DNA of 64,000 bases, taken from the NCBI GenBank assembly GCA_965277715.1, contig OZ255836.1:192001-256000 (forward strand), written 5' to 3'. Under the pieces are notes generated by a model. It searched no databases. It saw nothing but the letters and a program-made list of their open reading frames with translations, and had not been told where the DNA came from. The stretch comes from Gammaproteobacteria bacterium. GTDB taxonomy: Bacteria > Pseudomonadota > Gammaproteobacteria > JBCCGL01. Position numbers and translations under genes: made by a program. Below are positions 2,108 through 59,502 of the stretch, piece after piece (the stretch's first letter is position 1; every line of letters starts with the position of its first letter).

Positions 2108-2732
2108 CACTTTACTGCACTGGGTTGCATTTTTTTCGGCTGTCGTTCTTTTAGAACTTTCTCCTGGTGCTGATATGGCTTTCATGCTTGGCCAAACTGT
2201 TCGCAACGGGCGCATAGCCGGGTTTGCAGCATTGTTCGGGAGTTTAGCTGCCACATTTTTCCACATTGCGATGGCAGCTATTGGTCTATCTGCAGTAATA
2301 GCCACATCCGCAATCGCTTTTTCAATCATAAAATGGGCCGGTGTTATTTACCTGATTTGGCTTGGGTGCCAGGCATTGTTTTCTAATGAAAAAAATAAAA
2401 CGACAGCGGTAATCAAGTCACCGACGACAAGTTCAATCTTCTTACAAGGGGCGCTAATTTCTGCCCTTAATCCTAAAGTCGCAATCTTTTTCTTGGCATT
2501 CCTTCCTCAGTTTGTAGTAGAAGGTGCTGGTCCAGTGAGCTTGCAATTGCTACTACACGGAGCACTGATAGTTGTAGTCGGCTGTTTGCTACAAACACCC
2601 TTAATACTTATGGGATCACGGATAGCTTCTACGTTGAGAGGAAACCAAAATCTTCGACTTTGGTTTGATCGTTGCCTTGGAGCATTGTACTTCACGTTAG
2701 GCATTCGACTTGCAATTAGCAAAATGAATTAA
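2108..2732 (+). CDS. LysE/RhtB family translocator; native start removed by the IS end (possibly a pseudogene)
   Basis: The frame extends upstream of the ORF-track start as TLLHWVAFFSAVVLLELSPGADMAF (LysE SPG motif) up to the IS end with no start codon; LNPKVAIFFLAFLPQF motif. Confidence 0.8.
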
Positions 2733-2920
2733 TACGGCTGGTTTTTCGCATAAAAAGCGCATGCAGTGGGCTGCCGATTCGCTGCGCGCTTTGTCAGCCG
2801 CTGATGCCTGTCCTGCCCAATTGTTACTTTGTGCACACAGTTGTCGTTGGCAACACTGCATTGTTTACCACTATAATTAGTTATTCTATATTCCCATCTA
2901 TATTGCTGGAGTTTCAGCCT

Positions 2921-4693
2921 ATGGCTTACCAAGTTCCCCTTGCCGATATAGCATTTGCCCTAGAAGTGGCCGGTGCCGAGACTATCTCTCGCCTACCAGG
3001 TTATGAAGAGGTTACGCCCGATTTAATCAATACCATTGTCGAAGAGGCTGGAAAGTTTGCCACTGACGTATTGGCCCCCCTTAATGCGCCGGGCGATCAG
3101 CAAGGGGCAAAGTGGCACGAAGAGGGTGTAACAACCGTTGAAGGCTGGCAGCAAGCTTATGCACAATTTGCTGCAAATGGCTGGGGTAGCCTGGGTTTTG
3201 ATCCTGAGTACGGTGGGCAGGGTTTGCCCATGTTGGCCTCAACGGCGGTAATGGAATTGTGGAGTTCATCGAATATGGCATTTGGCTTATGCCCACTGTT
3301 GACTCAAGGGGCCATTGATGCGATTTACAGTCATGGTTCTGAGGCGATGAAAAGCACCTACCTGCCAAAGATGATATCAGGCGAATGGACAGGTACTATG
3401 AATTTGACTGAAGCGCAGGCGGGTTCTGATTTGGCGGCGATTCGCAGTAGCGCAACCCCTAGCGGGGATCACTATTTAATTAAAGGGCAAAAGATCTATA
3501 TCACCTACGGCGAGCACGATCTTGCAGAAAATATTATTCATCTGGTATTGGCGCGCACCCCGGATGCACCACAGGGTGTGAAGGGTATTTCCCTGTTTGT
3601 CGTGCCAAAATTCTTAGTCCAGGCAGATGGCTCTCCCGGCGAACGCAACGATCTGCGCTGTGTATCGATTGAGCACAAACTCGGTATTCACGCCAGCCCC
3701 ACGGCGGTAATGGCATACGGTGATAATGAGGGTGCGGTTGGTTATCTGGTTGGTGAGGAAAACAAGGGATTGATTTATATGTTCACCATGATGAATATCG
3801 CCCGTCACAGTGTGGGCGTACAAGGCTATGCCCTGGCCGAGCGCGCCTACCAGCAAGCGCGGGATTTTTCCCGTGAACGCACCCAGGGGGCCACGGTATT
3901 AGCGGGCGATAGCGGCAGTAAAACCATTATTAACCACCCGGATATCCGCCGTATTTTGTTGTTGATGCGTTCACAAACAGAAGCGATGCGGGCTTTGGCA
4001 TTTGAGTGTGCGGTTGCTTTTGATCACGCAGGCAAACACCCTGATGCCGATGTGCGCGCATTTTTCCAGCGCCGTGGTGAATTGCTAACACCGTTGGTCA
4101 AAGGGTGGTCGACTGAAATAGGTGTGGAGATATGCTCCCTGGGGGTTCAGGTGCATGGTGGTATGGGTTTTATTGAGGAGACGGGTGCTGCGCAGCATCT
4201 GCGCGATGTGCGTATAACGCCTATTTATGAGGGCACCACGGGTATTCAGGCAAACGATCTGATTGGCCGCAAGCTCGCCCGTGATGGTGGGCAGGGGGTG
4301 CGCGAGTTGGTGGCGGCGATGCGTGAATGCCAGGCTGCACTGCCCGATACCCTCGATGTTGCTATTGCCACTTCGCTTGAAGATTGTGTCAATGCGATAG
4401 AGACAACGACTGAGTGGATGTTGTCGCAAGACGATCCGGCGTTACCGGCTGCTGCATCGGTTAATTATTTAATGTTAATGGGGATTGCCAGTGGGTACTG
4501 GATGATGGCACGGGGAGCCGCACTCGCCAGTAAACATCAACTGGAGCAGTGTGGGGATGTTGACTACCTCAAGGCCCGTTGTGTGACTGCTCATTTTTAT
4601 GCGGTGCATGTGGTGCCGAGGGTGGTTGCTTTGAAGGAGATCATTTTGCATGGTTCGGTGGTAGCGATTAAGCTGGATGAAGCGCAGTATTGA
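2921..4693 (+). CDS. Acyl-CoA dehydrogenase (long, DmdC-like type)
   Basis: GTMNLTEAQAGSDL, KGQKIYIT, EHKLGIHASPT, QVHGGMGF, IYEGTTGIQA; RBS GGAG before ATG 2921. Confidence 0.9.
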   Translation: MAYQVPLADIAFALEVAGAETISRLPGYEEVTPDLINTIVEEAGKFATDVLAPLNAPGDQQGAKWHEEGVTTVEGWQQAYAQFAANGWGSLGFDPEYGGQGLPMLASTAVMELWSSSNMAFGLCPLLTQGAIDAIYSHGSEAMKSTYLPKMISGEWTGTMNLTEAQAGSDLAAIRSSATPSGDHYLIKGQKIYITYGEHDLAENIIHLVLARTPDAPQGVKGISLFVVPKFLVQADGSPGERNDLRCVSIEHKLGIHASPTAVMAYGDNEGAVGYLVGEENKGLIYMFTMMNIARHSVGVQGYALAERAYQQARDFSRERTQGATVLAGDSGSKTIINHPDIRRILLLMRSQTEAMRALAFECAVAFDHAGKHPDADVRAFFQRRGELLTPLVKGWSTEIGVEICSLGVQVHGGMGFIEETGAAQHLRDVRITPIYEGTTGIQANDLIGRKLARDGGQGVRELVAAMRECQAALPDTLDVAIATSLEDCVNAIETTTEWMLSQDDPALPAAASVNYLMLMGIASGYWMMARGAALASKHQLEQCGDVDYLKARCVTAHFYAVHVVPRVVALKEIILHGSVVAIKLDEAQY

Positions 4694-4886
4694 TTTAGAT
4701 TTGACGTTGCTCTATCTCCTGTATCCGTACAGTCGTCGGTAACTGCTCCTGTGGACAGCAGGCTTACACTAATTGTTAATTGCTGGTTGCTTGTGGTTGT
4801 GTCTCTGGGGTATTGGTTGTTTACTTAGGTGGCTTTGTTATTGTGAGTTACCTTCATGCTGGCAAGGCGCAGTGAGTTGTAGTTAT

Positions 4887-5618
4887 TTAATTGGATAGTT
4901 GTAATAAATACCCCGTGCCACCAAGTGCGCGCATTTGCTTCAATATCCAGCGCTGCCGTTTTAGGGTATAGGCGGAAGGCTGGTCAACCCGGTAGATCGC
5001 TGGGTTGGGCAATACGGCGGCAAGCAGTGCCGCTTCCCACCGGTTAAGGTTTGAGGCATTTTTGGCAAAGTAGTACTCACTGGCCGCCTGTGCGCCAAAT
5101 TGCCTGTCTCCCCATTGGGCAATGTTGAGGTAAACCTCCAATATGCGTTGTTTGGGCCACAGTGATTCAATCAGTACGGTCAACCACGCTTCGATGCCTT
5201 TGCGTATCCAGGATTGTGCCGGCCATAAAAATAGATTTTTCGCCACCTGCTGGGAAATCGTGCTGGCCCCGCGACGACTCTCCCCACGTTGGCGTGCCTT
5301 GAGGGCCTGTTTGATGGACTCAATATCGAAACCAGTGTGTTGTGCAAATAACTGATCTTCTGCGGCGATTACGGCAATTTTTAGCTGAGGGGATAACCGT
5401 TGCCAGTCTACCCACTGGTAGTGTAGTGCCGTTTGGTTTGCGTCGATAAACCCGCTGGGCCATTGGTGTTGTAGCATGAACGATGTGGTGGGAGGGTTTA
5501 CCCACCGGAACGCCAGGATGGTCAGTGCACTGAATAGCATTAAACACAGTGGCAAAAAAAACAGCCACTTTATAAATGGGCGGCGTTTTTTTGTGGATTT
5601 ATTTTTCCTGCGGTACAT
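4887..5618 (-). CDS. mtgA: Monofunctional peptidoglycan transglycosylase
   Basis: AAEDQLFAQHTGFD, GASTISQQVAKNLFL, RKGIE, ILEVYLN, LPNP motifs; N-terminal TM. Confidence 0.95.
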   Translation of the reverse strand: MYRRKNKSTKKRRPFIKWLFFLPLCLMLFSALTILAFRWVNPPTTSFMLQHQWPSGFIDANQTALHYQWVDWQRLSPQLKIAVIAAEDQLFAQHTGFDIESIKQALKARQRGESRRGASTISQQVAKNLFLWPAQSWIRKGIEAWLTVLIESLWPKQRILEVYLNIAQWGDRQFGAQAASEYYFAKNASNLNRWEAALLAAVLPNPAIYRVDQPSAYTLKRQRWILKQMRALGGTGYLLQLSN

Positions 5619-5749
5619 CTATAATACTTGGTCGATCAATAAGTTGCCTATAAGAATAACACTCAAAAATACGCATGATATTATAGGCCATAGCAGTAAA
5701 ACGCATTTGCTTGATGCCTGTCAGATTTTAAATTTTTGGAGCTAATCTT

Positions 5750-6526
5750 TTGAACTACGAAAATATTTTACTGGAAATCCACGATGCAGTCGGGCTGATT
5801 ACATTGCATCGCCCCAAAGCAATGAATGCCCTGTCCAGTGTGCTGATGGGGGAAATGACCCATGCGCTAGATGCACTGGAGGCAGACGATGCGATTGGTG
5901 CGATTGTCATTACAGGTAGTGAAAAGGCCTTTGCTGCTGGTGCCGACATTAAAGAGATGAGGGATAAGACCTTTATGCAGGCGTATAAAGAGAATTTTAT
6001 TACCGTTGGCTGGGAGCGGATCACCCGCTGCCGCAAACCCGTTATCGCGGCGGTGGCAGGCTATGCTCTCGGTGGTGGGTGTGAAACAGCGATGATGTGT
6101 GATTTTATTATTGCCGCCGATAACGCAAAATTTGGCCAGCCTGAGGTGACTATTGGCACCATTCCCGGCGCGGGAGGGACTCAGCGTTTAACGCGTCTGG
6201 TGGGTAAAGCCAAGGCGATGGAAATGTGCCTGACCGGGCGTATGATGGATGCCGAAGAAGCGGAGCGGGCGGGGTTGGTCAGTCGTATTGTGCCACTGGA
6301 TCAGCTATTGGATGAAGCGCTGAAAACGGCCGCGAAGATTGCTGCGTTCTCGCGGCCTATTGTGATGATGATAAAAGAGTCGGTAGACAGTGCATTGGAA
6401 ACCAGCTTGCACGAAGGTATCAAAATCGAAAGGCGTTTGTTTCACGCTGCGTTTGCCACCGAAGACCAAAAAGAGGGTATGGCGGCGTTTGCAGAAAAAC
6501 GATCACCGGCGTTTACGCATCAATAA
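5750..6526 (+). CDS. Enoyl-CoA hydratase (crotonase family)
   Basis: [35 protein letters not shown]. Confidence 0.93.
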
Positions 6527-6575: not shown

Positions 6576-6609
6576 AAAAAGCCCTTCTCTCTGAGGGTGA
6601 GGGGCTTTT
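6576..6609. terminator. Probable intrinsic terminator hairpin
   Basis: AAAAAGCCCTT...AGGGGCTTTT stem with A/T tails downstream of the enoyl-CoA hydratase. Confidence 0.55.
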
Positions 6610-6718
6610 AAAACGCCCTCTTCAGGAATAACGACAGTGCAGGCAAACGATAATACGATCAGCAGTGATCGGCAGAAAATGATTGTTTACTTTACGCCGT
6701 TTAAATTAAAGCGCTGAT

Positions 6719-8395
6719 ATGACAGAAAAAATGCAAACTGGTGGGCAGCTCCTGGTCGAATGCCTGAAACAACTGGGCGCTAAAAAATGCTTCGGCGTAC
6801 CGGGTGAGAGTTATCTGGATGTGCTTAATGCGCTATACGATACCCAGGGCGAGCTCGATTTTATTCTCTGCCGTAACGAGGGGGGCGCCGCCTTTATGGC
6901 GGAGGCTTTTGGCAAACTTACAGGCACACCGGGTATTTGTCTGGTAACCCGTGGGCCAGGGGCTACCAATGCCTCAATCGGGGTGCACACGGCCATGCAG
7001 GGTTCAACGCCCATGATCCTGTTTGTCGGTCAGGTGGGCACGGGTATGCAAGGCCGCGAGGCGTTCCAGGAGATAGACTATCGCGCCTTTTACGGCGGTG
7101 TGGCGAAATGGGTGGTTGAGATCGATCGGGTTGACCGCATTCCCGAACTGCTCAGCCGCGCCTGGTCGACGGCATTGTCCGGTCGGCCCGGCCCCGTGAT
7201 AGTGGCTCTGCCAGAAGATATGCTGACCTCGACGAGCGCTATCGCCCCTTGTCGGCCTCTACGTATTGCAGAACCCTCACCCTCCAGTACCGAGGTGAGT
7301 GAAATAGTGGGCTTGCTGGCAACGGCCAAACGGCCTCTGGTGCTGGCTGGCGGTGGTCGATGGGACACCAAAGGGCGTGAGGCCTTGCAGTATTTTATCG
7401 AGGCGAATGACCTGCCACTGGCCGCCGCATTCCGGTTTCAGGATGTGTGTAATAACCACAGCCCGTGTTATGTAGGGGATGCCGGTGTGGGCATGATCCC
7501 CTCGGTTAAAGCCCTGATCCGCGATGCCGATGTGATTCTCGCCCTGGGCATTCGTTTTGGTGAAATGAGCACGGATGCCTATACCCTGCTCGATGTGCCC
7601 CACCCCTCGGCGAAACTGATTCATATTCACGCCTCTGATCGTGAGCTGGGTAAAGTGTACGCCGCTGATTTGCCTGTGCACGCCGGGCCTAACCAGGTGG
7701 CGCTGGCGTTGCGGCAGCTTGTGCTGCCGGTTAGCTGGTCGGCATGGCGGTCGCGGGCGCGTGATGCTTACCTCAGCAGTTTTCGCGATGCGCCGGTACA
7801 GCCTGGCCCGGTCGATATGGTGGCGGTGATGGCCTGGTTGCGTGAACGGCTGGGTGATGATGTGATTGTCACTAATGGCGCGGGTAACTTTGCTGTCTGG
7901 CCTAATAAATTCTTTCAATTCGGCCCTGGCCAGCGTTTATTGGCACCCCAGAGTGGAGCGATGGGCTACGGCGTGCCAGCGGCTGTCGCCGCCAAGCTGG
8001 CAGAACCTGAACATACCGTTATCTGTTTTGCCGGCGATGGGGATTTTCAGATGAACTGCCAGGAGCTGGGCACCGCGCTGCAAGCGGGCTGTCAGCCGAT
8101 TATTCTGATTTTGAATAATGGCAGTTATGGGACAATTCGCATGCACCAGGAGCGCCACTACCCGGCGCGGGTATCGGGCACTGATCTGGTCAATCCCGAT
8201 TTTGTCGCGCTGGCCCAGGCCTATGGTTTTTATGCGGAGAGGGTGGCATCAACGGCAGATTTTGCCGGGGCATTTGCGCGTGCCCAGGCATCAGAATCAG
8301 GGGCTGTGCTCGATTTGGCGATAGCGACTGAGGCGTTGACACCCCGCCAAACGCTTAGCCAGATTCGTGCGGCGGCTATGGGCGGAAAGTTATAA
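6719..8395 (+). CDS. Thiamine-pyrophosphate-binding enzyme (acetolactate synthase-like)
   Basis: FGVPGESYL, RNEGGAAFMA, TRGPGATN, GDGDFQMN...NNGSYGTIR TPP motif. Confidence 0.92.
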   Translation: MTEKMQTGGQLLVECLKQLGAKKCFGVPGESYLDVLNALYDTQGELDFILCRNEGGAAFMAEAFGKLTGTPGICLVTRGPGATNASIGVHTAMQGSTPMILFVGQVGTGMQGREAFQEIDYRAFYGGVAKWVVEIDRVDRIPELLSRAWSTALSGRPGPVIVALPEDMLTSTSAIAPCRPLRIAEPSPSSTEVSEIVGLLATAKRPLVLAGGGRWDTKGREALQYFIEANDLPLAAAFRFQDVCNNHSPCYVGDAGVGMIPSVKALIRDADVILALGIRFGEMSTDAYTLLDVPHPSAKLIHIHASDRELGKVYAADLPVHAGPNQVALALRQLVLPVSWSAWRSRARDAYLSSFRDAPVQPGPVDMVAVMAWLRERLGDDVIVTNGAGNFAVWPNKFFQFGPGQRLLAPQSGAMGYGVPAAVAAKLAEPEHTVICFAGDGDFQMNCQELGTALQAGCQPIILILNNGSYGTIRMHQERHYPARVSGTDLVNPDFVALAQAYGFYAERVASTADFAGAFARAQASESGAVLDLAIATEALTPRQTLSQIRAAAMGGKL

Positions 8396-8581
8396 TGTGT
8401 GGGGTTTTTTTGCTTTGAAGCTACGTTTCACCAAGTTGATAGCGAATTCAATAACCAGACATCCTTTATCACGGCGATATTTTGTTGCTGGCTTTAGAAT
8501 ATACACAGTGATGCTTTAGTCTTCAGACAAAATATCTTCTGGATTAAATCAAGCGTTTTTGGGTGTGTTTGTTAATCCTGT

Positions 8582-8734
8582 TTAAAAATGCGCAAGGTGT
8601 GGCTTTATCACCTGCAACATCGCATGAAAAATTTTGGGGTTAGCCGCCACTACCTGCTTACCGTGTAACCAGTCTTCACCGCCACTGAAATCGCCAACCA
8701 GGCCACCCGCTTCACGGATGATTAAACTCCCGGC
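8582..8734 (-). repeat. Displaced duplicate of the suhB 3' end (left att-like direct repeat)
   Basis: 153 bp matching 15709-15861 with 9 substitutions by manual alignment; encodes AGSLIIREAGG...IKPHLAHF*. Confidence 0.92.
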
Positions 8735-9707
8735 AGGAGCCATTGTCACCAGCCACGCCAATTGAGTGAAGAAGAACGTTCTGTGGTATTGAATACGCTC
8801 AATAATTGGGAATTCTATGATCAACCACCAGCACAGGTCTACCACACCCTGCTCAGTCGCTGTATTTATCTCTGCTCCATCAGCACCCTGCACCGACTGC
8901 TGCGCCAGTCCGATCAGTCAGGGGAACGCCGAAGACAGCGCCCTGGGCAAGCCAACGCGGTGCCAAGGCTTTCAGCCAGCCAACCTAATGAGGTCTGGAC
9001 GTGGGACATTACAAAACTCGCCACCGTTGAGTGCGGTGTTTACTTATCGCTTTATGTAGTGATGGATTGATTCAGTCGCTATATTGTGGCTTGGATGCTT
9101 TCTCATAAAGAAAACAGCGCACTGGCACAGCCGCTCATTCAAGAGGCCAATACACGTTACGCGATTAGACCCGGCCAGTTGACGCGGCATCAAGATCGCG
9201 GGACTCCGATGACAGCACATTGCTACCTGGACTTATTGGTCGAGTTGGCAGTCACTGCAAGCCACAGCAGACCCCGCGTGAGTAATGATAACCCTCACAG
9301 TGAAAGCCAATTCTGAACACTGAAGTATCAGCCTGACTACCTGCGTCGCTTTGACCATTATCGCCATGCTAACAGGTGGTGCACTGAGTATGTCGATTGG
9401 TACAACCATCAGCACTGCCACAGTGCCTTAGAGGGCTTCACGCCTTGTCAGGTATTGACTGCACAGCACCTGTCTCTCGGTCAAGTTTGTCAACAGGCGC
9501 TGGATAAAAAGTATGCCCAACATCCAGAGCGATTCGTACATCAGCGGCCTCTTGTCAGGATGCCGCCTGCGAAGATCTACATTAACCCCGTACACGATGA
9601 ACTGGGGAATATAGAACACGATGCGCACGTCAACTTTCCAACTCTAAATCGAGCTAAATCTATGCTAACTTGAATAACTATGGCTTGAAACAGGTTGACA
9701 CCTTCCG
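8735..9707 (+). pseudogene. IS3-family transposase OrfB remnant, 5'-truncated, with in-frame stops
   Basis: PNEVWTWDITKL, HQDRGTPM, SHSRPRVSNDNPHSESQF; stops at 9068 and 9314. Confidence 0.88.
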
Positions 9708-9780: not shown

Positions 9781-12700
9781 ATGCTATGCAGGTATACCAA
9801 CAAAGGGTTGTTGCTGATTGTATTTTCATTGCTGATAACGGCGTGTGGTGGCGAAAACGCCTCAACACTACCGCTACCACCACCTGCTGGCGATTCAACT
9901 AGCGGCTCCCAGGTCATCCTTGGCCCTATTGTCGGGGCAACAGTCAGTGCAGCGCTGGCCAGTAATACCGCCAACACTATCGAAACCACCACCACTACCG
10001 GAAGTGCCACCAACTTGAATAGTGCAGGCCGCTTTTCTCTACAGTTGACCGGTGTCACTGATGGTGTCTGGGTGCTGGTCAGTGTGACGGGGGGTAATGA
10101 CATCGATGCTGACGATAATGGCGTGCTGGATGCCACCCCCACCGCCAACCAAGGCACAATAAGGGCACTGGGCAAAGCGGCGGACTGGCGCTCTGGCAAC
10201 GCCAATATCACCGTTCTTTCAGAAATACTGGTCAACCGTCTGCTCAATGGCGGGATTGATCTCAATACCCTCACCGATAGCCAGGTCGAAAGTGGGTTGA
10301 ATGCCACCAGTGTGCAATTACTACAAACCAATGCCGATGTTAACGGTGACAATATCAGCAACTATCAGGACATCCTCGGCTTTACTCCGCAAAATCAAAA
10401 CTACCCGGCTAGCGTGGCATTGGCTGATCTCAACACTATTGCTGTCATGCTGGAAAGCGGTAACGCTGCACAAACAGATAATCTAATCACGGCGTTGCTT
10501 AATCAGCCACCGGTGGCCAATGCGGGCAGTGACCAGGTTGTTGCTGAAGGTAGCACGGTGAGCCTCAACGCCACCGGCACGGATACGGATGGCACTATCG
10601 ACCGTTATGCCTGGGTGCAAAACGCGGGCACCACTGTTACCTTAACAGGGGCTGCCACAGCGGCAGCCACCTTCGTCGCGCCCCTATTGCCCGCCAATAC
10701 TGCCACCGAGACCTTGAGTTTTACCCTGACAGTTACCGATAACCTCGGCGCCAGCGCCACAGATACAGTGGTCGTCACCCTCCAGGACAGCAATAACAAT
10801 GCACCTGTAATAACCAGCGCCAACAGCGCCAGCGTCAGTGAAAATACCACTGCTGTACTCACCCTCACCGCCAGTGACGCGGATACGACGGGTGAAACCA
10901 CCACTTACGCGCTCAGTGGCGATAACGCCAGCTTATTTACCCTTAACGGTTCGGCGTTGGCCTTCCAGAATATGCCGGATTTTGAGGTGCGTCCCTGTGG
11001 TGTCGATAACATCTGTAACCTAATAATAACCCCCAGCGATGGTACCAATACCGGGCCTGGACAGACATTTGCCGTCACCCTGGTGGATGTCAACGACAGT
11101 GCCCCGATCATTACCAGTGGCAGTACCGTTAGCGTTTTGGAAAATACCACGGTGGTACTCACCCTCACCGCCAGTGACGCGGATACGACGGGTGAAACCA
11201 CCACTTACGCGCTCAGTGGCGATAACGCCAGCTTATTTACCCTTAACGGTTCGGCGTTGGCCTTCCAGAATATGCCAGATTTTGAGGTGCGTCCCTGTGG
11301 TGTCGATAACATCTGTAACCTAATAATAACCCCCAGCGATGGTATCAATACCGGGCCTGGACAGACATTTGCCGTCACCCTGGTGGATGTCAACGACAGT
11401 GCGCCGGTAATGACCAGCGCCAGTACGGTCAGTGTCGACGAAAACACCACGGTGGTACTCACCCTCACCGCCAGTGATGCCGACAGCACCGGCGAGGCGA
11501 TAGACTTCACGCTTGGTGGTAGTGATGCATCGAGTTTTCGTCTTGTGGGTTCAGCGTTGAGTTTTAGCAGCGCGCCCGACTTTGAAACCCCGGTATGCGG
11601 TGATAATGTCTGTACGATTACCCTCACGCCCAGCGATGGGCTTAATACCGGCAGTGGGCAAACTGTAACGGTTAGTGTCCAGGATCTGAACGACACTGCG
11701 CCGGTAATGAGCAGCGCCAGTACGGTCAGTGTCGACGAAAACACCACGGTGGTACTCACCCTCACCGCCAGCGATGCCGACAGCACCGGCGAGACGATAA
11801 GCTTCACGCTTGGTGGTAGTGATGCATCGAGTTTTCGTCTTGTGGGTTCAGTGTTGAGTTTTAGCAGCGCGCCCGACTTTGAAACCCCGGTATGCGGTGA
11901 TAATGTCTGTACGATTACCCTCACGCCCAGCGATGGGCTTAATACCGGCAGTGGGCAAACTGTAACGGTTAGCGTCCAGGATCTGAACGACACTGCGCCG
12001 GTAATGACCAGCGCCAGTACGGTCAGTGTCGACGAAAACATCACGGTGGTACTCACCCTCACCGCCAGTGACGCGGATACGACAGGTGAAACCACCACTT
12101 ACGCGCTCAGTGGCGATAACGCCAGCTTATTTACCCTTAACGGTTCGGCGTTGGCCTTCCAGAATATGCCGGATTTTGAGGTGCGTCCCTGTGGTGTCGA
12201 TAACATCTGTAACCTAATAATAACCCCTAGCGATGGTATCAATACCGGGCTTGGACAGACATTTGCCGTCACCCTGGTGGATGTCAACGACAGTGCGCCG
12301 GTAATGAGCAGCGCCAGTACGGTCAGTGTCGACGAAAACACCACGGTGGTACTCACCCTCACCGCCAGTGATGCCGACAGCACCGGCGAGGCGATAGACT
12401 TCACGCTTGGTGGTAGTGATGCATCGAGTTTTCGTCTTGTGGATTCAGCGTTGAGTTTTAGCAGCGCGCCCGACTTTGAAACCCCGGTATGCGGTAATAA
12501 TATCTGTACTATCACCATTACCCCCAGTGACGGCGTCAATATTGGCAGCGCACAAACGATCACAGTAACCGTTAACGACCTCGCCGCCATCACTCTGGCG
12601 AATAGCAATATCAACGAGGGAAACAGCGGTACGACAGTAGTCAATGTCAACGTTAGCCTCGCGTCGATAGCTACCGCCAGTGTCAGTTTCAGTGTGAGCG

Positions 12701-13620
12701 ACGGCACAGCGACTACAGCAGATAATGACTACAGCGTAGCCAACAGCACCGGCACCCTTAACTTTACCGGTGGCTCGACAACCGCAGTGGTAGCTATCAC
12801 CATCAATGGCGACACACAAGTAGAGAGCGATGAAACCCTCAGCATTGTACTAAGTAACCCCATCAACGCCGAACTACAGGGCATTAGCACAGCAATATTG
12901 ACGATCAACAACGATGATTCAGCAGCCCCAACGCTTAACGACACCGGCGTTGTGTTTGGTGCAGACACCAACCTGAACAACAGTGGTTGCACCAGCGCCG
13001 ATACGGTTATCGCCCAGCAGGATTGTTCGCGGGGCCGGGATGTCACCAATAACGACGCCAGCGATGGCCACGCGGGGTTTAGTTTCACCAAAATCAGCAG
13101 CACAGGTCAACCCCTGGCGGCTAGTGCTAGCGCTTGGGCCTGTACACAGGACAATATCACCGGTCTGATGTGGGAGGTAAAAACCAATGATAACGGCCTA
13201 CACGATAGGGGTGATATGTACACTTGGTATAGCACCGACAGTAGCAATAATGGTGGCAATGCGGGTACCGAAAATACTACAACCAGCTGCTTTGGCTACA
13301 ATAATGCCGATGCAGCGACCTTTTGCAACACCCAGGCGTATGTGGCACGCATTAACGCGGCGGGCCTATGCGGTTTTACTGATTGGATCTTGCCGGGCCG
13401 TGAACAACTGCGCTCGATAGCCAATCGCAATAGTTTTAATCCGGCTATCGATACCGCTTATTTTCCAAATACCCGATCCGATAATTTTTATTGGTCGTCG
13501 TCGCCCCTCGCCAACAACAATGCCAACGCGTGGGACTTCTTCTTCTTCGACGGCAGCGATAGCAACTTCTTCAGCAAGAGTAGCAACCATTTTGTTCGTG
13601 TTGTTCGCGCCAGTCAGTAG
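9781..13620 (+). CDS. Large surface lipoprotein: PKD-like domain, six cadherin-like repeats, Calx-beta domain and C-terminal DUF1566 (Lcl/CLec) domain; DGR target 1
   Basis: Lipobox LLITA-C; NQPPVANAGSDQ; repeated PDFE and D(V/L)ND-AP motifs; INEGNSG..DGTAT..GDTQVESDET; DNITGLMWE..LCGFTDWILP..YWSSS..VRVVR. Confidence 0.9.
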   Translation: MLCRYTNKGLLLIVFSLLITACGGENASTLPLPPPAGDSTSGSQVILGPIVGATVSAALASNTANTIETTTTTGSATNLNSAGRFSLQLTGVTDGVWVLVSVTGGNDIDADDNGVLDATPTANQGTIRALGKAADWRSGNANITVLSEILVNRLLNGGIDLNTLTDSQVESGLNATSVQLLQTNADVNGDNISNYQDILGFTPQNQNYPASVALADLNTIAVMLESGNAAQTDNLITALLNQPPVANAGSDQVVAEGSTVSLNATGTDTDGTIDRYAWVQNAGTTVTLTGAATAAATFVAPLLPANTATETLSFTLTVTDNLGASATDTVVVTLQDSNNNAPVITSANSASVSENTTAVLTLTASDADTTGETTTYALSGDNASLFTLNGSALAFQNMPDFEVRPCGVDNICNLIITPSDGTNTGPGQTFAVTLVDVNDSAPIITSGSTVSVLENTTVVLTLTASDADTTGETTTYALSGDNASLFTLNGSALAFQNMPDFEVRPCGVDNICNLIITPSDGINTGPGQTFAVTLVDVNDSAPVMTSASTVSVDENTTVVLTLTASDADSTGEAIDFTLGGSDASSFRLVGSALSFSSAPDFETPVCGDNVCTITLTPSDGLNTGSGQTVTVSVQDLNDTAPVMSSASTVSVDENTTVVLTLTASDADSTGETISFTLGGSDASSFRLVGSVLSFSSAPDFETPVCGDNVCTITLTPSDGLNTGSGQTVTVSVQDLNDTAPVMTSASTVSVDENITVVLTLTASDADTTGETTTYALSGDNASLFTLNGSALAFQNMPDFEVRPCGVDNICNLIITPSDGINTGLGQTFAVTLVDVNDSAPVMSSASTVSVDENTTVVLTLTASDADSTGEAIDFTLGGSDASSFRLVDSALSFSSAPDFETPVCGNNICTITITPSDGVNIGSAQTITVTVNDLAAITLANSNINEGNSGTTVVNVNVSLASIATASVSFSVSDGTATTADNDYSVANSTGTLNFTGGSTTAVVAITINGDTQVESDETLSIVLSNPINAELQGISTAILTINNDDSAAPTLNDTGVVFGADTNLNNSGCTSADTVIAQQDCSRGRDVTNNDASDGHAGFSFTKISSTGQPLAASASAWACTQDNITGLMWEVKTNDNGLHDRGDMYTWYSTDSSNNGGNAGTENTTTSCFGYNNADAATFCNTQAYVARINAAGLCGFTDWILPGREQLRSIANRNSFNPAIDTAYFPNTRSDNFYWSSSPLANNNANAWDFFFFDGSDSNFFSKSSNHFVRVVRASQ
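10795..12588 (+). repeat. Intragenic tandem array of two cadherin-repeat types (300-bp A, 297-bp B) in the order A-A-B-B-A-B
   Basis: Near-identical DNA units: A carries TTYALSGDNASLF..PCGVDNICNL, B carries FTLGGSDASSF..PVCG(D/N)N(V/I)CTI. Confidence 0.9.
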
Positions 13621-13632
13621 CCTTGGTTTTTG
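13489..13632 (+). repeat. DGR variable region VR1 plus conserved 3' IMH-like tail
   Basis: Aligns to 14579-14724; differences sit at codon positions 1-2 of NNC/NNT codons; shared tail TTTGTTCGTGTTGTTCGCGCCAGYCAGTAGCCTTGGTTTTT. Confidence 0.88.
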
Positions 13633-13651
13633 GTGAGGTGAGGGTGCCGAA

Positions 13652-14127
13652 ATGAATCCGTTTATGCCGACGATTGTCCGAGATGTCGAGCGCCTTAGCT
13701 ATTGGGGGCATTACAGTCATGCTAATAGTTTTCGCCTACGTCAGCAACTGATGCAGCAATTTCCCTGGTTACCCGTTTTATTTTCAAGCCATCAGGGAAA
13801 GCTGATACGCAAGTATTACCCACCCAAACAACTTCATTGGTGTGAAGGCAGGGCTAATCTTGTCAGTCAGTTGCAGTATTTTCGCCACTTTTACCCACAG
13901 GTGTTGTTGTGTTAGTACAGTTGGGCTATCAGATGTTGCTGGTAACGCCTGATATGGCGATCGGTGATATCTTGCAAAAAGCCCCGCGTTATCAATGGAA
14001 CAAAGCCATAAAACCCACGCAATCGGCAGTATGGGTTAGTGAACAAGGCTATCTTCAAAACGGTGGTCGCCACCGTATCGCCACCCATTTTACCAACTAT
14101 ATTTCCCCCCTCAATAGTTATGACTAA
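13652..14127 (+). pseudogene. DGR core remnant: Avd-like N-terminus fused to a DGR RT C-terminus and MutS-I-like (MSL) tail; frameshifted near 13910
   Basis: MNPFMPTIVRDVERL resembles an Avd start; SYWGHYSHANSFRLRQ..FPWL resembles a DGR RT thumb end; FRHFYPQVLL/LVQLGY resembles MutS-I; no YxDD motif. Confidence 0.7.
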
Positions 14128-14146
14128 CCACCTGGAGGCAGTGACC

Positions 14147-14710
14147 ATGCCCGGATTAGAACACCCCAAAGTAACGCAATTACGTTACGCGCTAGTATTA
14201 CTGCTCTGCTGTGTGGCAAGCGGTATCGCTAGCGCAACGTGCAATAGCAATATCGTGCGTACAGCGCCAGACAACCGCTACCAGATTCAAGCAGGGGGCG
14301 CAGAGGTGCTGGATACACAAACCAATTTGATCTGGCAACGCTGTAGTCTAGGGCAAACCTTTAATAATCTAGGCACCGCAGAGACCAGCGATGATCGCTG
14401 TGATAACAGCGCCACAGCTTACACCTGGCAGGGGGCGTTACAGGCAGCGCAGGGTATTGCGACTAATAGTGGTCAGGCGTGGTTTTTGCCGAATATCAAC
14501 GAGCTGGCCAGTCTTGTCGAGCTGGCGTGTAGCCCGGTTATCAATGAAACCGTTTTTCCTGACACACCATCGTCTACTTATTGGTCGTCGTCGCCCGTCG
14601 CCTCCAACAATATCGCCGCGTGGATCCTCGACTTCAGCAGCGGCGGCGATGACTTCAGCAGCAAGAATGACAACAGCCGTTTTGTTCGTGTTGTTCGCGC
14701 CAGCCAGTAG
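14147..14710 (+). CDS. Secreted DUF1566 (Lcl/CLec) protein; DGR target 2
   Basis: GGAGG RBS at 14134, hydrophobic signal peptide, VLDTQTNLIWQRCSLGQ, WFLPNINELASLV, YWSSS..AW..F..G..VRVVRASQ. Confidence 0.9.
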   Translation: MPGLEHPKVTQLRYALVLLLCCVASGIASATCNSNIVRTAPDNRYQIQAGGAEVLDTQTNLIWQRCSLGQTFNNLGTAETSDDRCDNSATAYTWQGALQAAQGIATNSGQAWFLPNINELASLVELACSPVINETVFPDTPSSTYWSSSPVASNNIAAWILDFSSGGDDFSSKNDNSRFVRVVRASQ

Positions 14711-14724
14711 CCTTGGTTTTTTGG
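14579..14724 (+). repeat. DGR variable region VR2 plus IMH-like tail
   Basis: Same length and frame as VR1, with the same invariant scaffold codons and 3' tail. Confidence 0.88.
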
Positions 14725-14782
14725 AAGGGGAGTGTAAAAGGTGGAGGGTTGAACAATTTGGATACACCCATAAGCCCACTTT

Positions 14783-14830
14783 CTAGCCCCCATGTATTTA
14801 CTTGTATGCAAGCTAATACAAGGTAGGCGG
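14783..14830. repeat. Degenerate copy of a 48-bp palindromic element
   Basis: CTAGCCCCCATGTATTTACTTGTATGCAAGCTAATACAAGG; homologous to 27438-27485 and 52586-52633. Confidence 0.7.
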
Positions 14831-14990
14831 TGCTCCATTGTATATATGGAGTATTTCGACAATGCCATGTGGCTCGTCGATATGGTAGTACACATGATAA
14901 CGCCGGTATACCAGCATACGTATGTGCGGATACTGTGCGTATCGTGCCACGTTCGCATGAGGAAAAAGCGGTAGCGTATCTTCAATAAAA
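14813..14990 (-). pseudogene. RelE/ParE-type toxin C-terminal fragment (not in the ORF track)
   Basis: Manual translation: FIEDTLPLFPHANVARYAQYPHIRMLVYRRYHVYYHIDEPHGIVEILHIYNGAPPTLY*; no start codon. Confidence 0.65.
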
Positions 14991-15044
14991 CAGACACCCT
15001 AGCATGAGAAGAGTTTTCGCCAATTGTGCGTGATGTGATTCTCT

Positions 15045-15132
15045 TTGACAGAATAGTTTGCAAAAAACGGGCGCAAAAAAGAGGCAAATCGGCTTTTCTG
15101 TAGTAGAGCAGTCTTGAACCCGACAGGCTCCT
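15045..15132. repeat. Solo end of a dispersed MITE-like repeat
   Basis: AAATCGGCTTTTCTGTAGTAGAGCAGTCTTGAACCCGACAGGCTCCT matches the reverse complement of 52879-52967. Confidence 0.75.
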
Positions 15133-15177
15133 CGCCCTGATATCGCGCTTTTGTCAAATTCACGTTACAGTACCTAG

Positions 15178-15423
15178 ATGGCTACTATGATTTCTGAAGT
15201 TTATGAGGCGTTCCGTGTCGTAGGCGTACCGGAAGATAAGGCCCGTGAGGCGGCAGAGGCTCTTTCTGCTGAGAGTTTGGCGACTAAAGGGGATATTCAA
15301 TCGCTTAAAGAACAAACGAAACCTGACATTGCCCGATTGGAGACTAAAATTACCCTGTTGCAATGGATGGTCGGTCTGGTGATTGTGGTTGAAATATTGC
15401 CTTTGCTGAAGACGCTGTTTTAG
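15178..15423 (+). CDS. Small coiled-coil protein with C-terminal TM helix (DUF1640/CCDC90-like)
   Basis: EVYEAF..GVPEDKAREAAEA, LATKGDI, LLQWMVG pattern. Confidence 0.7.
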   Translation: MATMISEVYEAFRVVGVPEDKAREAAEALSAESLATKGDIQSLKEQTKPDIARLETKITLLQWMVGLVIVVEILPLLKTLF

Positions 15424-15447
15424 GTTCTTATTAACCATTGAAATAGA

Positions 15448-15530
15448 CGCAACTTCAAGAGCCTCAACCGCCTTATTCGTTTTTTTGCGCTAATCAGTAG
15501 CCTTGGTTTTTTTGGGGAGGGGTGTGAAGG
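15448..15530 (+). repeat. Eroded third VR 3' end plus IMH-like tail, with no target gene
   Basis: CGC AAC TTC AAG AGC CTC AAC CGC CTT ATT CGT TTT TTT GCGCT AAT CAG TAG CCTTGGTTTTTTTGG parallels the VR1/VR2 ends. Confidence 0.7.
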
Positions 15531-15708
15531 GTTGGCGTGATATTTGTGGTGCACAAATCCAGTTCAGTTTGTTTTGTTCGACCGGACTTCCTAAGCCAAT
15601 TCAAAATTTCTACTAGCTTATGAATGCCCCATTTCCCTTTTTCTCCTGGGCAGGAAATAGTATTAATTATGAGATGAGGCCATGGAAATATTCATATATT
15701 GATCATAT

Positions 15709-16497
15709 TTAAAAATGCGCAAGGTGTGGTTTTATCACCTGCAACATAGCATGGAAAATTTTGGGGTTGGCCGCCACTATCTGCTTACCGTGTAACCAAT
15801 CTTCACCGCCACTGAAATCGCCAATTAAGCCACCCGCTTCACGGATGATTAAACTCCCGGCGGCAATGTCCCAGGGGTTTAACCCGGTTTCCCAAAAGCC
15901 GTCGAGCCTGCCAGAGGCAACATAAGCCAGATCAAGCGCCGCCGCACCCGGTCGCCGGATACCGGTGGTGTGCTGGATAAAATCACGTAACAATGCCATG
16001 TAATGGTCGGTATTTTGTGTTTCAAGGTAGGGAAAACCCGTGCCAAGCAGGCTGTTTTCCAGTGTGCGGTGGTTGGATACGCGCAGGCGTTTGTTATCCA
16101 GCCAGGCGCCGCGCCCGCGTGAAGCGGTGAATAGTTCCTGGCTGACTGGATCATAGATAACTGCCTGTTCGAGCTTGCCGGATTTTTGCAATGCAATGGA
16201 TACGGCAAATTGTGGGAATCCGTGCAGGTAGTTGGTCGTGCCATCCAGTGGGTCGATAATCCACACGTAATCACTGTTACCCGATGCACCGGATTCCTCT
16301 GCCAAAACCGCGTGGTCGGGGTAGGACTGGTGTAGCGTCTGGATGATTTTTTCCTCGGCCTGCCGGTCGACATTCGAGACAAAATCATTGTGTTGTTTTT
16401 TTTCTATCGTCAGTGTATCGATGCGTTCGAATTGACGCATAATAACGTTGCCAGCGGCGCGGGCAGCGCGGATGGCAATATTCAACATAGGATGCAT
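15709..16497 (-). CDS. suhB: Inositol monophosphatase / Nus factor SuhB
   Basis: MHPMLNIAIRAAR, WIIDPLDGTTNY, RRPGAAALDLAYVA, PWDIAAG; divergent from trmJ. Confidence 0.96.
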   Translation of the reverse strand: MHPMLNIAIRAARAAGNVIMRQFERIDTLTIEKKQHNDFVSNVDRQAEEKIIQTLHQSYPDHAVLAEESGASGNSDYVWIIDPLDGTTNYLHGFPQFAVSIALQKSGKLEQAVIYDPVSQELFTASRGRGAWLDNKRLRVSNHRTLENSLLGTGFPYLETQNTDHYMALLRDFIQHTTGIRRPGAAALDLAYVASGRLDGFWETGLNPWDIAAGSLIIREAGGLIGDFSGGEDWLHGKQIVAANPKIFHAMLQVIKPHLAHF

Positions 16498-42591: not shown

Positions 42592-45384
42592 TTGAACGCA
42601 GTTGAAATAGAAGAGGCGATAACCAATTTATCCGAGCAAAATTTTGACCCGGAGGCTTTTCCTTACGCTTTTTTAGAGGCATTTGGCAATAAAGCCACCA
42701 CAATAAAACGGCTTAAAACTGGCTCCTCGAATGCGTCAGATATTAAGGGTGGCGTTTTACAGCGGAATAATATCCACCTTTCGGTCTGTCCCGAAGGTTG
42801 TGTAACGGAGACCTTGAGTAAACTCAAAGCCAGTTCTGAAACCAGCAAGAAAAAAGTTAAATTTGTGCTGGCAACTGACGGCATTGATCTGGAAGCGGAA
42901 GATCTCATATCGGGTGAAACGGTTGCGTGTGCCTACAAAAATTTTCCCGATCACTTCGGTTTTTTCTTGCCATTGGCGGGTATCACCACCGTTAAGCAAA
43001 TCCGCAATAACCCAATTGATATTCAGGCAACCAGCCGCTTAAACCGCCTCTATATTGAATTGTTGAGTACTAACGAGGAGTGGGCTACCAACGAACGTCG
43101 TCACGATATGAACCAGTTGATGACGCGCCTGATATTCTGCTTTTTTGCGGAAGACACTGATATCTTTCTCGGCGACAATCTGTTTACCGCAACCATTGAG
43201 CAGATGACGGACAGTCGTTCTGGCAACACGGGTTTTGTATTGGGTGAAATCTTTCGAGCTATGGATACACATCCCGATAAGCGGGCGGAAGCCAATTTGC
43301 CACGATGGGCTGATGCGTTTCCGTATGTAAACGGCGGGCTTTTTTCTGGCTGTAAAGAGGCGCCCAAATTCAGCCGGATTGCGCGCTCATACTTGCTACA
43401 TGCTGGTAGCCTGAATTGGAAAGAGATTAACCCCGATATTTTCGGCTCAATGATTCAGGCGATTGCCGACGAAGACGAACGCGGCGAACTGGGTATGCAC
43501 TACACCAGCGTGCCCAATATTCTTAAGGTGCTTAATCCTTTGTTTTTGGATGATCTGCGTGAGCAGTTAAAGCTGGCGGGGGATAGCGCCCGTAAGCTGC
43601 TCAATTTACGCAAACGCCTTTCCAATATTCGCGTGTTTGACCCGGCTTGTGGTTCGGGCAACTTTTTAGTGATTGCCTATAAAGAAATGCGCGCTATTGA
43701 AAACGAGATTAATCAAAGGCGAAAGGATGGCCATCAAAAAACAGCGATTCCGTTAACGAATTTTCGCGGCATAGAGCTTAGAGACTTTCCGGCCGAAATA
43801 GCCCGATTGGCATTGATTATCGCCGAATACCAGTGTGACGTGCGCTACCTTGGCCAAAAAGATGCCTTAGCCGAATTTCTGCCACTGAATGCTGTGAACT
43901 GGATTACTTGTGGCAATGCTTTGCGCCTGGATTGGCTGTCTATTTGTCCGCCAACAGGGAAAGCGGTGAAGCTGATGGCAGAGGATTTGTTGGAAATGCC
44001 GCTGGATCAAGTCGATATTGATTTTAAAAATGAAGGAGGGGAAACTTATATTTGTGGTAATCCTCCTTATCTAGGCAGTACTTGGCAGTCTAAGGAACAA
44101 AAAGCTGACTTGGAAAAGATATTTGGACATCGTACTAAAAGTTGGAAGTCGCTGGACTATGTTGCGGGCTGGTTTATGAAAGCCGCTGACTACGGAAAAT
44201 ATACCAACTCAGTTAGTGCTTTTGTTAGCACTAACTCTATTTGCCAAGGGCAGCAAGTTCCTATTCTCTGGCCATTAATTTTTAAAACAGATCATGAAAT
44301 CAGCTTTGCATATACATCTTTTAAATGGGCAAATCTTGCTAACCATAATGCAGGAGTAACTGTAGTGATTGTTGGCATTGCAAATCAGGCTAACAAGGTA
44401 CGGCGTTTATTTTCTACAGATGAAAATGGTCAGACTATTGAAAAGAAAGCAGGCAACATTAATGCTTATTTAGTCGTAGGGGCTAATGTCGAAGTAATAA
44501 AATTAGCTAGCCCCATAAGTATAGTAGGCACAATGGATCGAGGTAATGGCGCTACAGATGGCGGGAATTTGCTTTTAGATAAAATGTCTCTTCATGCTAT
44601 GAATTTAACTCTAAAACGACAAAATAATTTTATACGTCCGTTTTATGGTTCTGCTGAGTATATAAGAGGTCTACAACGATTTTGTCTATGGATTAGCGAT
44701 GAAGATGCTGAAGAATCCAAGAAAATAGAACCTATCAATGAACGAATAGCAGCAGTTAAAACAATGAGACTCGCGAGCAAAAAAGAAGCGACTCGTAAAG
44801 GCGCAGTTTATCCTCATCGTTTTGATGAAAAAAGGCAGATAGGAGATGAAACAGTTTTAATAATACCTCGTGTGTCATCTGAAACCAGAGAGTACCTTCC
44901 GGTTGGATTTTTACCCCCCGAATCAATTGTTAGCGATAGTGCCTTTGCCCTATATGATTCGCCACTTTGGAATATGGCTCTAATTGCATCAAAACTTCAT
45001 ATAGTTTGGATTGCGACGGTATGCGGCAAGTTAAAAACAGATTATCGTTATTCAAATACTATGGGCTGGAATACTTTTCCAGTCCCCAAACTAACTGAAA
45101 AAAATAAAAAAGACCTAACTCGCTGCGCAGAGGATATTCTCCTTACACGTGAAGCACACTTCCCCGCCACCATTGCCGATCTTTACGATCCAAAAAACAT
45201 GCCCGCAGACCTACGACATGCACACGACCGTAATGACGAAGTGCTGGAACGCATATATATCGGGCGACGATTTAAAAACGACACCGAACGCCTTGAAAAA
45301 CTCTTTGATCTTTACGCCAAGATGACGGCCACCACACATACAACAGTGAATAAAACCCGTAAAACCAACAAGAAGGTATCCTGA
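42592..45384 (+). CDS. MmeI-like N6-adenine DNA methyltransferase (YeeA/DnmA-like)
   Basis: FPYVNGGLF, GMHYTS, DPACGSGNF (motif I), GNPPY (motif IV), C-terminal TRD with YRYSNT. Confidence 0.9.
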   Translation: MNAVEIEEAITNLSEQNFDPEAFPYAFLEAFGNKATTIKRLKTGSSNASDIKGGVLQRNNIHLSVCPEGCVTETLSKLKASSETSKKKVKFVLATDGIDLEAEDLISGETVACAYKNFPDHFGFFLPLAGITTVKQIRNNPIDIQATSRLNRLYIELLSTNEEWATNERRHDMNQLMTRLIFCFFAEDTDIFLGDNLFTATIEQMTDSRSGNTGFVLGEIFRAMDTHPDKRAEANLPRWADAFPYVNGGLFSGCKEAPKFSRIARSYLLHAGSLNWKEINPDIFGSMIQAIADEDERGELGMHYTSVPNILKVLNPLFLDDLREQLKLAGDSARKLLNLRKRLSNIRVFDPACGSGNFLVIAYKEMRAIENEINQRRKDGHQKTAIPLTNFRGIELRDFPAEIARLALIIAEYQCDVRYLGQKDALAEFLPLNAVNWITCGNALRLDWLSICPPTGKAVKLMAEDLLEMPLDQVDIDFKNEGGETYICGNPPYLGSTWQSKEQKADLEKIFGHRTKSWKSLDYVAGWFMKAADYGKYTNSVSAFVSTNSICQGQQVPILWPLIFKTDHEISFAYTSFKWANLANHNAGVTVVIVGIANQANKVRRLFSTDENGQTIEKKAGNINAYLVVGANVEVIKLASPISIVGTMDRGNGATDGGNLLLDKMSLHAMNLTLKRQNNFIRPFYGSAEYIRGLQRFCLWISDEDAEESKKIEPINERIAAVKTMRLASKKEATRKGAVYPHRFDEKRQIGDETVLIIPRVSSETREYLPVGFLPPESIVSDSAFALYDSPLWNMALIASKLHIVWIATVCGKLKTDYRYSNTMGWNTFPVPKLTEKNKKDLTRCAEDILLTREAHFPATIADLYDPKNMPADLRHAHDRNDEVLERIYIGRRFKNDTERLEKLFDLYAKMTATTHTTVNKTRKTNKKVS

Positions 45385-58918: not shown

Positions 58919-59290
58919 TAGCACCATTGATTTGTGTTTATCGCTGTTTCCTTGGGCCGATTTTCGAACGACCAAAGGTGCGATTAAATTGCATGTTGGT
59001 TTGAATCATGCAGGATACCTACCCGAATTTGTGTCGATTACCGAGGGTAAAGTACATGATGTTACTATTGGTAAGCTGTTGAGTTTCCCTAAAGGTAGTA
59101 TCATCGCCATGGATAAGGGTTACAATGACTACAATTGGTATAAGCAATTGACTAACAAGGGAATATTCTTTGTCACGCGACTCAAGAAGAATGCTAAATA
59201 CAGGGTTGTCAGTCGTCGTTCGGTATTGAAAGATAAAGGGCTAAGCTGTGATCAGACCATTGAATTTACGGGTGTTCAAACATCAAAAAA
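58919..59290 (+). pseudogene. IS4-family transposase internal fragment
   Basis: STIDLCLSLFPWADFRTTKGAIKLH, MDKGY, FFVTRLK; cut by IS5 on the left and fused to toxin DNA on the right. Confidence 0.85.
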
Positions 59291-59502
59291 ATGGGGCTAC
59301 GCACGGTTATTATCATACTGCATCAAACTTAACAGTAAACACGCAAGTAAGTGCAGGGCAAGTGATAGGGAGCAGCAATTTTTCAGGTCGAGCTACAGGG
59401 TTGCATCTTCACTATACGATTCAGACAGGAGCTACAAGAGCCACGAGAATTGATCCCTTACCATACTTGAGAAATCTAAATCCAAGTACACCAGGTCAAT
59501 GA
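59291..59502 (+). pseudogene. Orphan toxin tip with an M23-peptidase C-terminal half
   Basis: GYYH..VSAGQVIG..SGRATGLHLHY..RIDP. Confidence 0.65.

Follow-up and report, generated by a model that had tools for sequence, protein, structure and literature searches.

Probable scar of a DGR: an avd start joined to an RT end between two targets with variable repeats

Described DGR cassettes and their remnants

Passages of Wu et al. (2018; PMC5758913, architectures B and D) describe DGR cassettes in which avd, TR and RT follow one another, the targets carry Lcl_C (DUF1566) and the RT has a tail domain. L001, a Thiotrichaceae MAG, is an example, with the order target (Lcl_C), avd, TR, RT with tail and second target. 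According to the same passages, MSL (MutS-like) accessory proteins occur in DGRs also together with avd. The loss of DGRs with leftover targets has already been described. A section of PMC4891356 reports leftover targets without RT and TR in Treponema denticola isolates. The Anabaena paralogue all3226 retains remnant TR-VR homology, with no RT gene or pseudogene nearby in the account given by a part of PMC7517822. In the parts concerned with these remnants, the authors of both articles propose that selection of a good variant is followed by removal of the diversification components. A passage of PMC7517822 also mentions a degraded DGR in Anabaena sp. 90, of which the RT alone is left without other features.

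The locus described here lies in a gammaproteobacterial window, the whole stretch of DNA that was analysed (64 kb). It has the order and orientation of the cassettes of architectures B and D. Like L001, it pairs a large multi-domain target with a small one, each with Lcl_C and a variable repeat (VR) at its end, and has an avd start about 30 nt past the target stop. Both loci have an RT tail of the type SYWGH..HANS.RLR...FPWL...QRG...GYL.GL.RR and a short T-rich flank that is common to the VRs and, in L001, absent from the TR. Unlike L001, the window lacks avd from codon 16 onwards, the TR and the RT portion ahead of SYWGH, and a frameshift interrupts the tail. The locus is very probably the scar of a DGR with its engine cut out.

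As in T. denticola and all3226, the VR-bearing targets outlive the diversifying core. Unlike those cases, for which the passages concerned describe no engine scar, both edges of the deletion are kept here and reveal where the engine lay, in which order and how it was lost. Anabaena sp. 90, as far as that passage goes, is also a decayed chromosomal cassette, but the opposite remnant: here, the RT core has disappeared, and what survives are the targets and two gene ends. Full-text searches of the literature, judged by listings and passages, brought up no description of an avd-start::RT-end scar. The locus is a new, well-mapped case of a known process and reveals no new mechanism. It offers a codon-level picture of DGR switch-off by a cut from the avd start to the RT end with both targets intact. 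It lends support to the published proposal that the mutator is disposed of after useful variants have become fixed. Searches anchored on targets or scars (VR ends, avd starts, SYWGH tails) can find former DGR loci that RT-anchored finders skip.

Two gene ends between two targets

All features of the locus are on the forward strand. Target gene 1 (9781..13620) codes for a lipoprotein-like surface protein of 1279 aa with cadherin, Big_9 and Calx-beta repeats and a C-terminal Lcl_C domain (DUF1566; residues 1121-1276, E 5.1e-25, PF07603, above the Pfam cutoff). Its build is like that of target 1 of L001. Near-identical tandem cadherin-like repeats of about 100 aa occupy 10600-12700 and are mirrored by long spurious ORFs on the minus strand. 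Target gene 2 (14147..14710) codes for a signal-peptide protein of 187 aa with Lcl_C (PF07603, E 1.2e-28, also above the Pfam cutoff). It shares 41% identity with the target-2 part of L001 (tblastn). VR1 (13489..13620) forms the 3′ end of target 1; VR2 (14579..14710) was placed by alignment with VR1 and by strain comparison. The C-terminal end of both targets is ...FVRVVRASQ*, and the stop codons are followed by CCTTGGTTTTT and a G-rich stretch.

The spacer (13621..13651) comprises the flank that follows the VR, CCTTGGTTTTT..., and a GAGGG ribosome-binding-like site, presumably of the former avd. An ORF of 87 codons (13652-13915) reads MNPFMPTIVRDVERL, then SYWGHYSHANSFRLRQQLMQQFPWL..., and ends with ...FYPQVLLC*. 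A second ORF of 72 codons in another frame (13909-14127) reads VLVQLGY...EQGYLQNGGRHR...*. This layout agrees with an earlier note on this DNA, which had placed an ORF 31 bp past target 1 (target stop 13620, ATG 13652) and a frameshifted segment just before target 2 (ORF end 14127, target 2 start 14147). Neither ORF belongs to a Pfam or NCBIfam family. A promoter and terminator scan of 13300-15700 gave nothing beyond shuffles, and blastn of 13400-15600 against plasmids gave no match.

The first 15 codons (13652..13696) were compared with Avd proteins. Avd homologues, called by phmmer with the L001 Avd at E ≤ 1e-13, were found in 11 of 16 genome loci. The N-termini of the Avd proteins upstream of the locus RTs (n = 11) follow the motif M-x3-L-P-P-I-[YWV]-R-D-x2-R-L-L, and so do six further N-termini from metagenome loci. 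MNPFMPTIVRDVERL fits this motif in exact register from the Met and shares 9 of its 15 residues with L002. Scored without gaps against a PSSM of these 11 N-termini, it reached 17.98 bits, the first rank among 73,064 stop-free six-frame 15-mers of the window (next 9.69 bits). This score was attained by 5 of 100,000 shuffles. The position is also that of an avd: the window ATG is located 31 nt past the target stop behind ...TGAGGGTGCCGAA, the avd of L001 30 nt past the target stop behind ...TGAGGATAACGA, and the stretches before the two start codons resemble each other. A local HMM of 15 columns, built from the same 11 N-termini, gave E 2.9 and rank 9 of 1845 segments and aligned only IVRDVERL. 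The tblastn search with the L001 Avd had no match in the window at E ≤ 1. The PSSM score and the spacing support the avd start that the earlier note had claimed; the assignment of residues 1-15 to the conserved start of Avd is based on 15 residues. From the bAvd-like four-helix-bundle gene (PF22296/PF05635, about 110-130 aa) expected between target and TR, only these first 15 codons were found.

From residue 16 onwards, the ORF resembles the end of an RT. A search for homologues of the 87-aa ORF among longer proteins gave none, which carries little weight, as phmmer later found RTs. Against 1.84 billion representatives, phmmer of the 87-aa ORF yielded 28 matches besides the query (E ≤ 0.001), and 23 of them start at query residue 14-16. 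The Pfam scan took 21 of the 28 and left out seven short ones. RVT_1 is located N-terminal to the match in 14 of the 21, above the Pfam cutoff in 12, and the remaining seven have no relevant Pfam family. In tblastn of RT-type proteins against the window, all seven matches start exactly at 13697. Residue 16 is also where the tblastn match starts in 14 of the 16 genome loci and in 14 of 19 loci from metagenomes. Thus, the switch that the earlier note had placed at about 13697 is precise, and phmmer, tblastn and the tail profile agree on the RT end from residue 16. Its proposal to compare the two parts separately by BLASTP gave a divided result: the part from residue 16 on is the RT tail, and residues 1-15 did not align with the L001 Avd.

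All 1845 six-frame segments of the window, to which the E-values refer, were searched with a profile built from 20 RT tails that start at SYWGH and reach to the end. Profile positions 1-66 are matched by the frame-A segment 13637-13912 (E 4.9e-19), positions 65-131 by the frame-B segment 13858-14124 (E 6.6e-6); the next-best segment has E 0.48. The match to the SYWGH-family tail is collinear from SYWGH to GYL.GL.RR over the two frames, which identifies the two ORFs as one RT tail split by a frameshift. The first half (13697..13912; tblastn and profile) is in frame with the avd start and reads SYWGHYSHANSF...FYPQVLL. The second half (13915..14127; profile and alignment) reads VQLGYQ...VWVSEQGYLQNGGRHR... 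in the other frame. The frameshift site (13904..13914) is in the run GTTGTTGTGTT, with a stop codon at 13913-13915. Judged by homology, residues 16-87 together with the frameshifted ORF represent the C-terminal tail of a DGR RT, and the frameshift near 13904-13914 is real, with both profile matches far beyond chance. RVT_1 is encoded in the same ORF as the SYWGH tail in 10 of 11 related loci, above the cutoff in nine. The RT tails of some relatives contain long low-complexity inserts between the QRG and GYL.GL.RR motifs, such as PPFSKGG repeats in L013 (3289-3918) and a Lys/Ser-rich stretch in L001 (8037-8600). This loop seems tolerant of large insertions.

The earlier note had also named MSL domains as described DGR accessories; the evidence that the tail is of this kind is divided. 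Pfam MutS_I was detected in 1 of the 21 scanned phmmer matches (P0013, E 2.8e-10), located after the RT-tail match. It was detected in none of the 11 locus RTs and in neither window ORF. A PDB sequence search with the tail alignment retrieved neither a MutS nor a solved RT. An AlphaFold model of the L004 tail (mean pLDDT 86) had no Foldseek match at E ≤ 0.001. With VIA-align, the top 4 of 48,161 chains for this model were domain I of MutS/MSH, at Z values of only 4.7-3.2, an rmsd of 4.5-6.1 Å and 59-73 aligned residues. The structural likeness and the single Pfam relative weakly support a link of the SYWGH tail to MutS.

Two other readings of the 87-codon ORF were weighed. It might hold an RT tail only, with residues 1-15 being either diverged RT sequence before SYWGH or a DFLGY...RL motif with an internal deletion behind it; in that case, avd would be lost entirely and the 5′ breakpoint would fall ahead of the ATG. 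BLASTP indeed aligned PTIVRDVERL--SYWGH with PSVVAKLRATLASYWGH of the L001 RT, MAFFT placed FMPTIVRDVERL on DFVGYIVRPKYRL of P0006 with 6 of 12 residues identical, and three short phmmer matches start at query residue 3. The scores contradict this. In the register before SYWGH, a PSSM of the same type gave 2.18 bits with a gap of two residues, a value reached by 324 of 5000 shuffles, -24.6 bits with a gap of one and -43.75 bits without a gap. The DFLGY register gave -12 bits, reached by 1396 of 5000 shuffles, versus 17.98 bits as an Avd start. Furthermore, the ATG, the GAGG site and the distance from the stop match the position of avd in L001, and an RT-only origin is very unlikely. Equally far from probable is that the ORF is no debris, either as a separate accessory protein of the MSL type or as a co-opted fusion peptide of 87 aa started from the old avd start. 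Small stand-alone MSL proteins of 112-283 aa are described in DGRs also with avd (in passages of Wu et al., PMC5758913), several database matches of 160-230 aa comprise little beyond the tail, and the GAGG site and ATG are retained. The ORF of 264 nt has no substitution versus about three expected (36 sites in 3 kb, strains X1-X3), which is a weak signal with a P of about 0.04, uncorrected. A stand-alone protein is opposed by the 10 of 11 related loci with the tail inside the RT ORF, and the short database proteins have about 45 RT-like residues before SYWGH that are absent from the window ORF. The frameshift puts the conserved tail end (GYL..G..RR) out of frame, and strain X1 adds a 23-nt insertion. 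The scar of a deleted DGR is the preferred reading.

The deletion and the intact relatives

A scan of genome contigs with an alignment of the ORF and six phmmer matches yielded the 16 genome loci. L001 among them has the order target-avd-TR-RT that the earlier note had predicted for an intact homologous cassette. Its target 1 (2584-5889) has 1101 aa with Big_9/cadherin repeats and Lcl_C. The Avd-like gene (5920-6270) codes for 116 aa with a bAvd match of E 1.3e-9, below the Pfam cutoffs (bAvd 38.9 bits versus 40; 23S_rRNA_IVP 24.7 versus 33.8). The TR is at about 6590-6716, and the RT starts at 6720, with RVT_1 at 47.1 bits and the same tail. A second small Lcl_C target can be read in frame to 9179. 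In L001, RT, tail and second target form one open frame of 819 codons (6720-9179), with a possible own start of target 2 at MSTLKSS....

In L001, VR1 differs from the TR at 18 positions, 14 of them TR adenines, and VR2 at 21, 17 of them TR adenines. Within the VR bodies, all mismatches (14 of 14 and 17 of 17) are on TR adenines. The four non-adenine differences are the same in both VRs and are found at the extreme 3′ end and within the flank. This short flank, which follows the stop, is common to the two VRs and absent from the TR. By this pattern, L001 is recognisable as a DGR of the working type.

On the scale of L001, about 2.07 kb is absent from the window, beginning with avd codon 16 and ending with RT residue 439. 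In most other loci, this interval spans about 1.7-2.0 kb; the extremes are 0.9 and 2.4 kb. The ancestral cassette would have had the order target 1 (VR1), avd, TR, RT with C-terminal tail domain and target 2 (VR2). A deletion of about 1.7-2.1 kb would have fused avd at codon 15 with the RT at the Ser codon of its SYWGH motif and would have removed about 100 avd codons, the entire TR and the entire polymerase core of about 360-440 codons. The in-frame joint has a one-in-three chance and would require no function. The remaining RT tail would then have been frameshifted near 13905-13914 and would be decaying as a pseudogene. VR1 and VR2 would no longer be rewritten locally and would be fixed at their last variants, unless a remote DGR serves them.

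In the 64 kb, the 44 large ORFs have no RVT_1, and tblastn found no further Avd piece. Full RTs in tblastn against the window hit only the tail from 13697; an intact polymerase core was not found. A TR-like copy was sought by blastn-short of VR1 and VR2 against the window, which returned only VR1, VR2 and a decayed third 3′ end. As the locus has no TR and no RT, rewriting of VR1 and VR2 from the locus is impossible. The two pieces were identified, the breakpoints set to the codon, an intact homologue found and the joint recovered from several samples. The claim of the earlier note that one deletion removed most of avd, the TR and the RT core holds for the missing parts; a single event is the parsimonious reading.

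The deletion may have been mediated by microhomology. In L005, L006, L011, L012 and L029, the avd R-L-L codons and the RT codons before SYWGH have a 6-8-nt run (T/C)TGCTGG in common. The other six loci of this comparison have only 4-7 nt of other sequence in common. These runs give a hint of microhomology precisely where the two breakpoints lie, as read from related intact cassettes and not from the window's own ancestor. The tail of the window is 35-46% identical to those of intact cassettes, about 35-40% to that of L001. Acs is 70% identical to that of the L001 host and 67-70% in three other locus genomes; the L001 host is not close kin of the window organism. The metagenome scan had no cassette above 46% identity in the tail. 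A DNA pattern of the VR end and flank (25 nt, three degenerate places) had 0 matches in the genome contigs and 0 in the metagenome contigs, so those collections contain neither this organism nor the cassette of a near relative. The closest intact cassette is distant; therefore, the ancestral sequence, the exact deletion size and the microhomology are unreadable.

Variable repeats and strain differences

VR1 and VR2 align over 132 nt without a gap and have 35 mismatches, 31 of them at codon positions 1 and 2. Indirectly, this bias points to adenine-directed mutagenesis of AAC codons. Three of the four third-position differences are around AGC AAG and suggest an offset of one codon between VR1 and VR2. 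The 42 nt at the 3′ ends of VR1 and VR2 plus flank are 97.6% identical. The 17-mer CAGTAGCCTTGGTTTTT, of which 0.03 copies are expected, has three exact copies in the window (13615, 14705 and 15495). The third belongs to a decayed VR 3′ end (15430..15532) with the same following flank, which comprises the last 50-70 nt of a VR plus flank, without a target ORF in front. Where VR1 and VR2 are 97.6% identical, this copy carries substitutions and has lost 1 nt. The copy at 15495 was considered as the lost TR and rejected: it has the 1-nt deletion and the flank, which in L001 is common to the VRs and not to the TR, and it was therefore read as the decayed end of a VR, probably all that remains of a third target gene. 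An ORF of 81 codons ahead of it (15178-15423) is unrelated and has no Pfam family.

The stretch was present in eight runs from four studies. Three of these runs (X6-X8) have all sampled words and may be the origin of the window. X1-X3 are sponge metagenomes from three other studies and have 0.80-0.82 of the sampled words. The joint 13696/13697 is bridged by contigs of X1 (13602-14602), X2 (13590-14709) and X3 (13602-14709), and one X6 contig spans the whole stretch including the joint. These contigs have no loose end or alternative joint at 13696/13697. The earlier note had proposed a search for an undeleted allele; none was present in the contigs, which drop rare variants. Four independent assemblies with the joint argue against an assembly artefact. 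The deletion is real and common to the sampled strains. The frameshift is also common to the strains, since X1-X3 have no indel difference at its site. The presence of the scar in sponge metagenomes of several studies makes it a case in which the evolution of orphan VRs after the loss could be measured.

Strain differences are unevenly distributed. X1-X3 have no base substitution in 13372-13987 (616 nt) versus about one per 80-100 nt in the flanks. Substitutions among strains in the tail are at 13988, 14001 and 14040. X1-X3 have one 5-nt GGTGA unit fewer at 13632-13636, and X1 alone has the 23-nt insertion (ACGGTGGTCGCCACCGTATCGCC), behind 14059 in the RT tail. Both differences are due to slippage of repeat units. 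In VR2, X2 and X3 have the changes 14598 T>C and 14675 A>G. They correspond to V151A and S177G, the sole residue changes of a database protein (P0035, 99% identical), both in VR2, the former at codon position 2 and the latter at codon position 1. The variable core of VR2 is exchanged in X1, where 49 unlike letters stand in place of 14603-14654; the contig end fits a VR1-type end better.

By the preferred reading, the targets would now be frozen. The difference of VR2 among strains with the same deletion is at odds with a simple frozen state. Diversification in trans, by another DGR with a TR matching VR1 and VR2 (TATTGGTCGTCGTCGCCC...TTTGTTCGTGTTGTTCGCGCC), competes only with this part of the preferred reading; the local engine would be dead either way. 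Remote targets are known for DGRs (in a section of PMC4891356), the 3′ ends of VR1 and VR2 kept their identity while the third copy decayed, and the junction is common to four assemblies, yet VR2 differs. Nevertheless, VR1 is identical in the contigs of all four runs compared, despite SNPs around it. The two X2/X3 changes are 77 nt apart with unchanged variable sites in between, which fits point mutation better than homing; they look like ordinary mutation under selection rather than new homing. The X1 replacement may be due to VR recombination or to homing from a remote DGR. Its segment is 3 nt shorter with an end nearer to the VR1 type, and recombination between VRs fits equally. The apparent one-codon offset at AGCAAG is not expected from a single TR, and the 64 kb contain no RT or TR. 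Service by a remote DGR is unlikely. Likewise doubtful is the broader claim that the orphan targets are not frozen and that VR2 was rewritten at least once (in X1) after the shared deletion, by a remote DGR or by VR exchange. If it were true, a locus missed by RT-anchored finders would still be hypervariable. The scar is the reading retained, with targets that would now be frozen unless a remote DGR serves them.

Downstream of target 2, the stretches 14783-14832, 15071-15132 and 15708-15798 have counterparts on several other contigs of each run at 85-95% likeness, with a summed depth of up to about five times that of the neighbourhood. These stretches, which lie between target 2 and the inositol monophosphatase gene, resemble small repeats dispersed in this genome. 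Further along the window, 42592-48615 codes for a restriction-modification enzyme of the MmeI family with all five MmeI domains, and the region looks like a small defence island. The enzyme is followed by an ORF of 683 aa without a Pfam family and a protein of 395 aa with a T5orf172/MUG113 domain. At 58080-59453, a gene for a DDE transposase of the IS4/IS5 family (249 aa) is adjoined by the truncated ORF of a second DDE transposase (192 aa) on the other strand.
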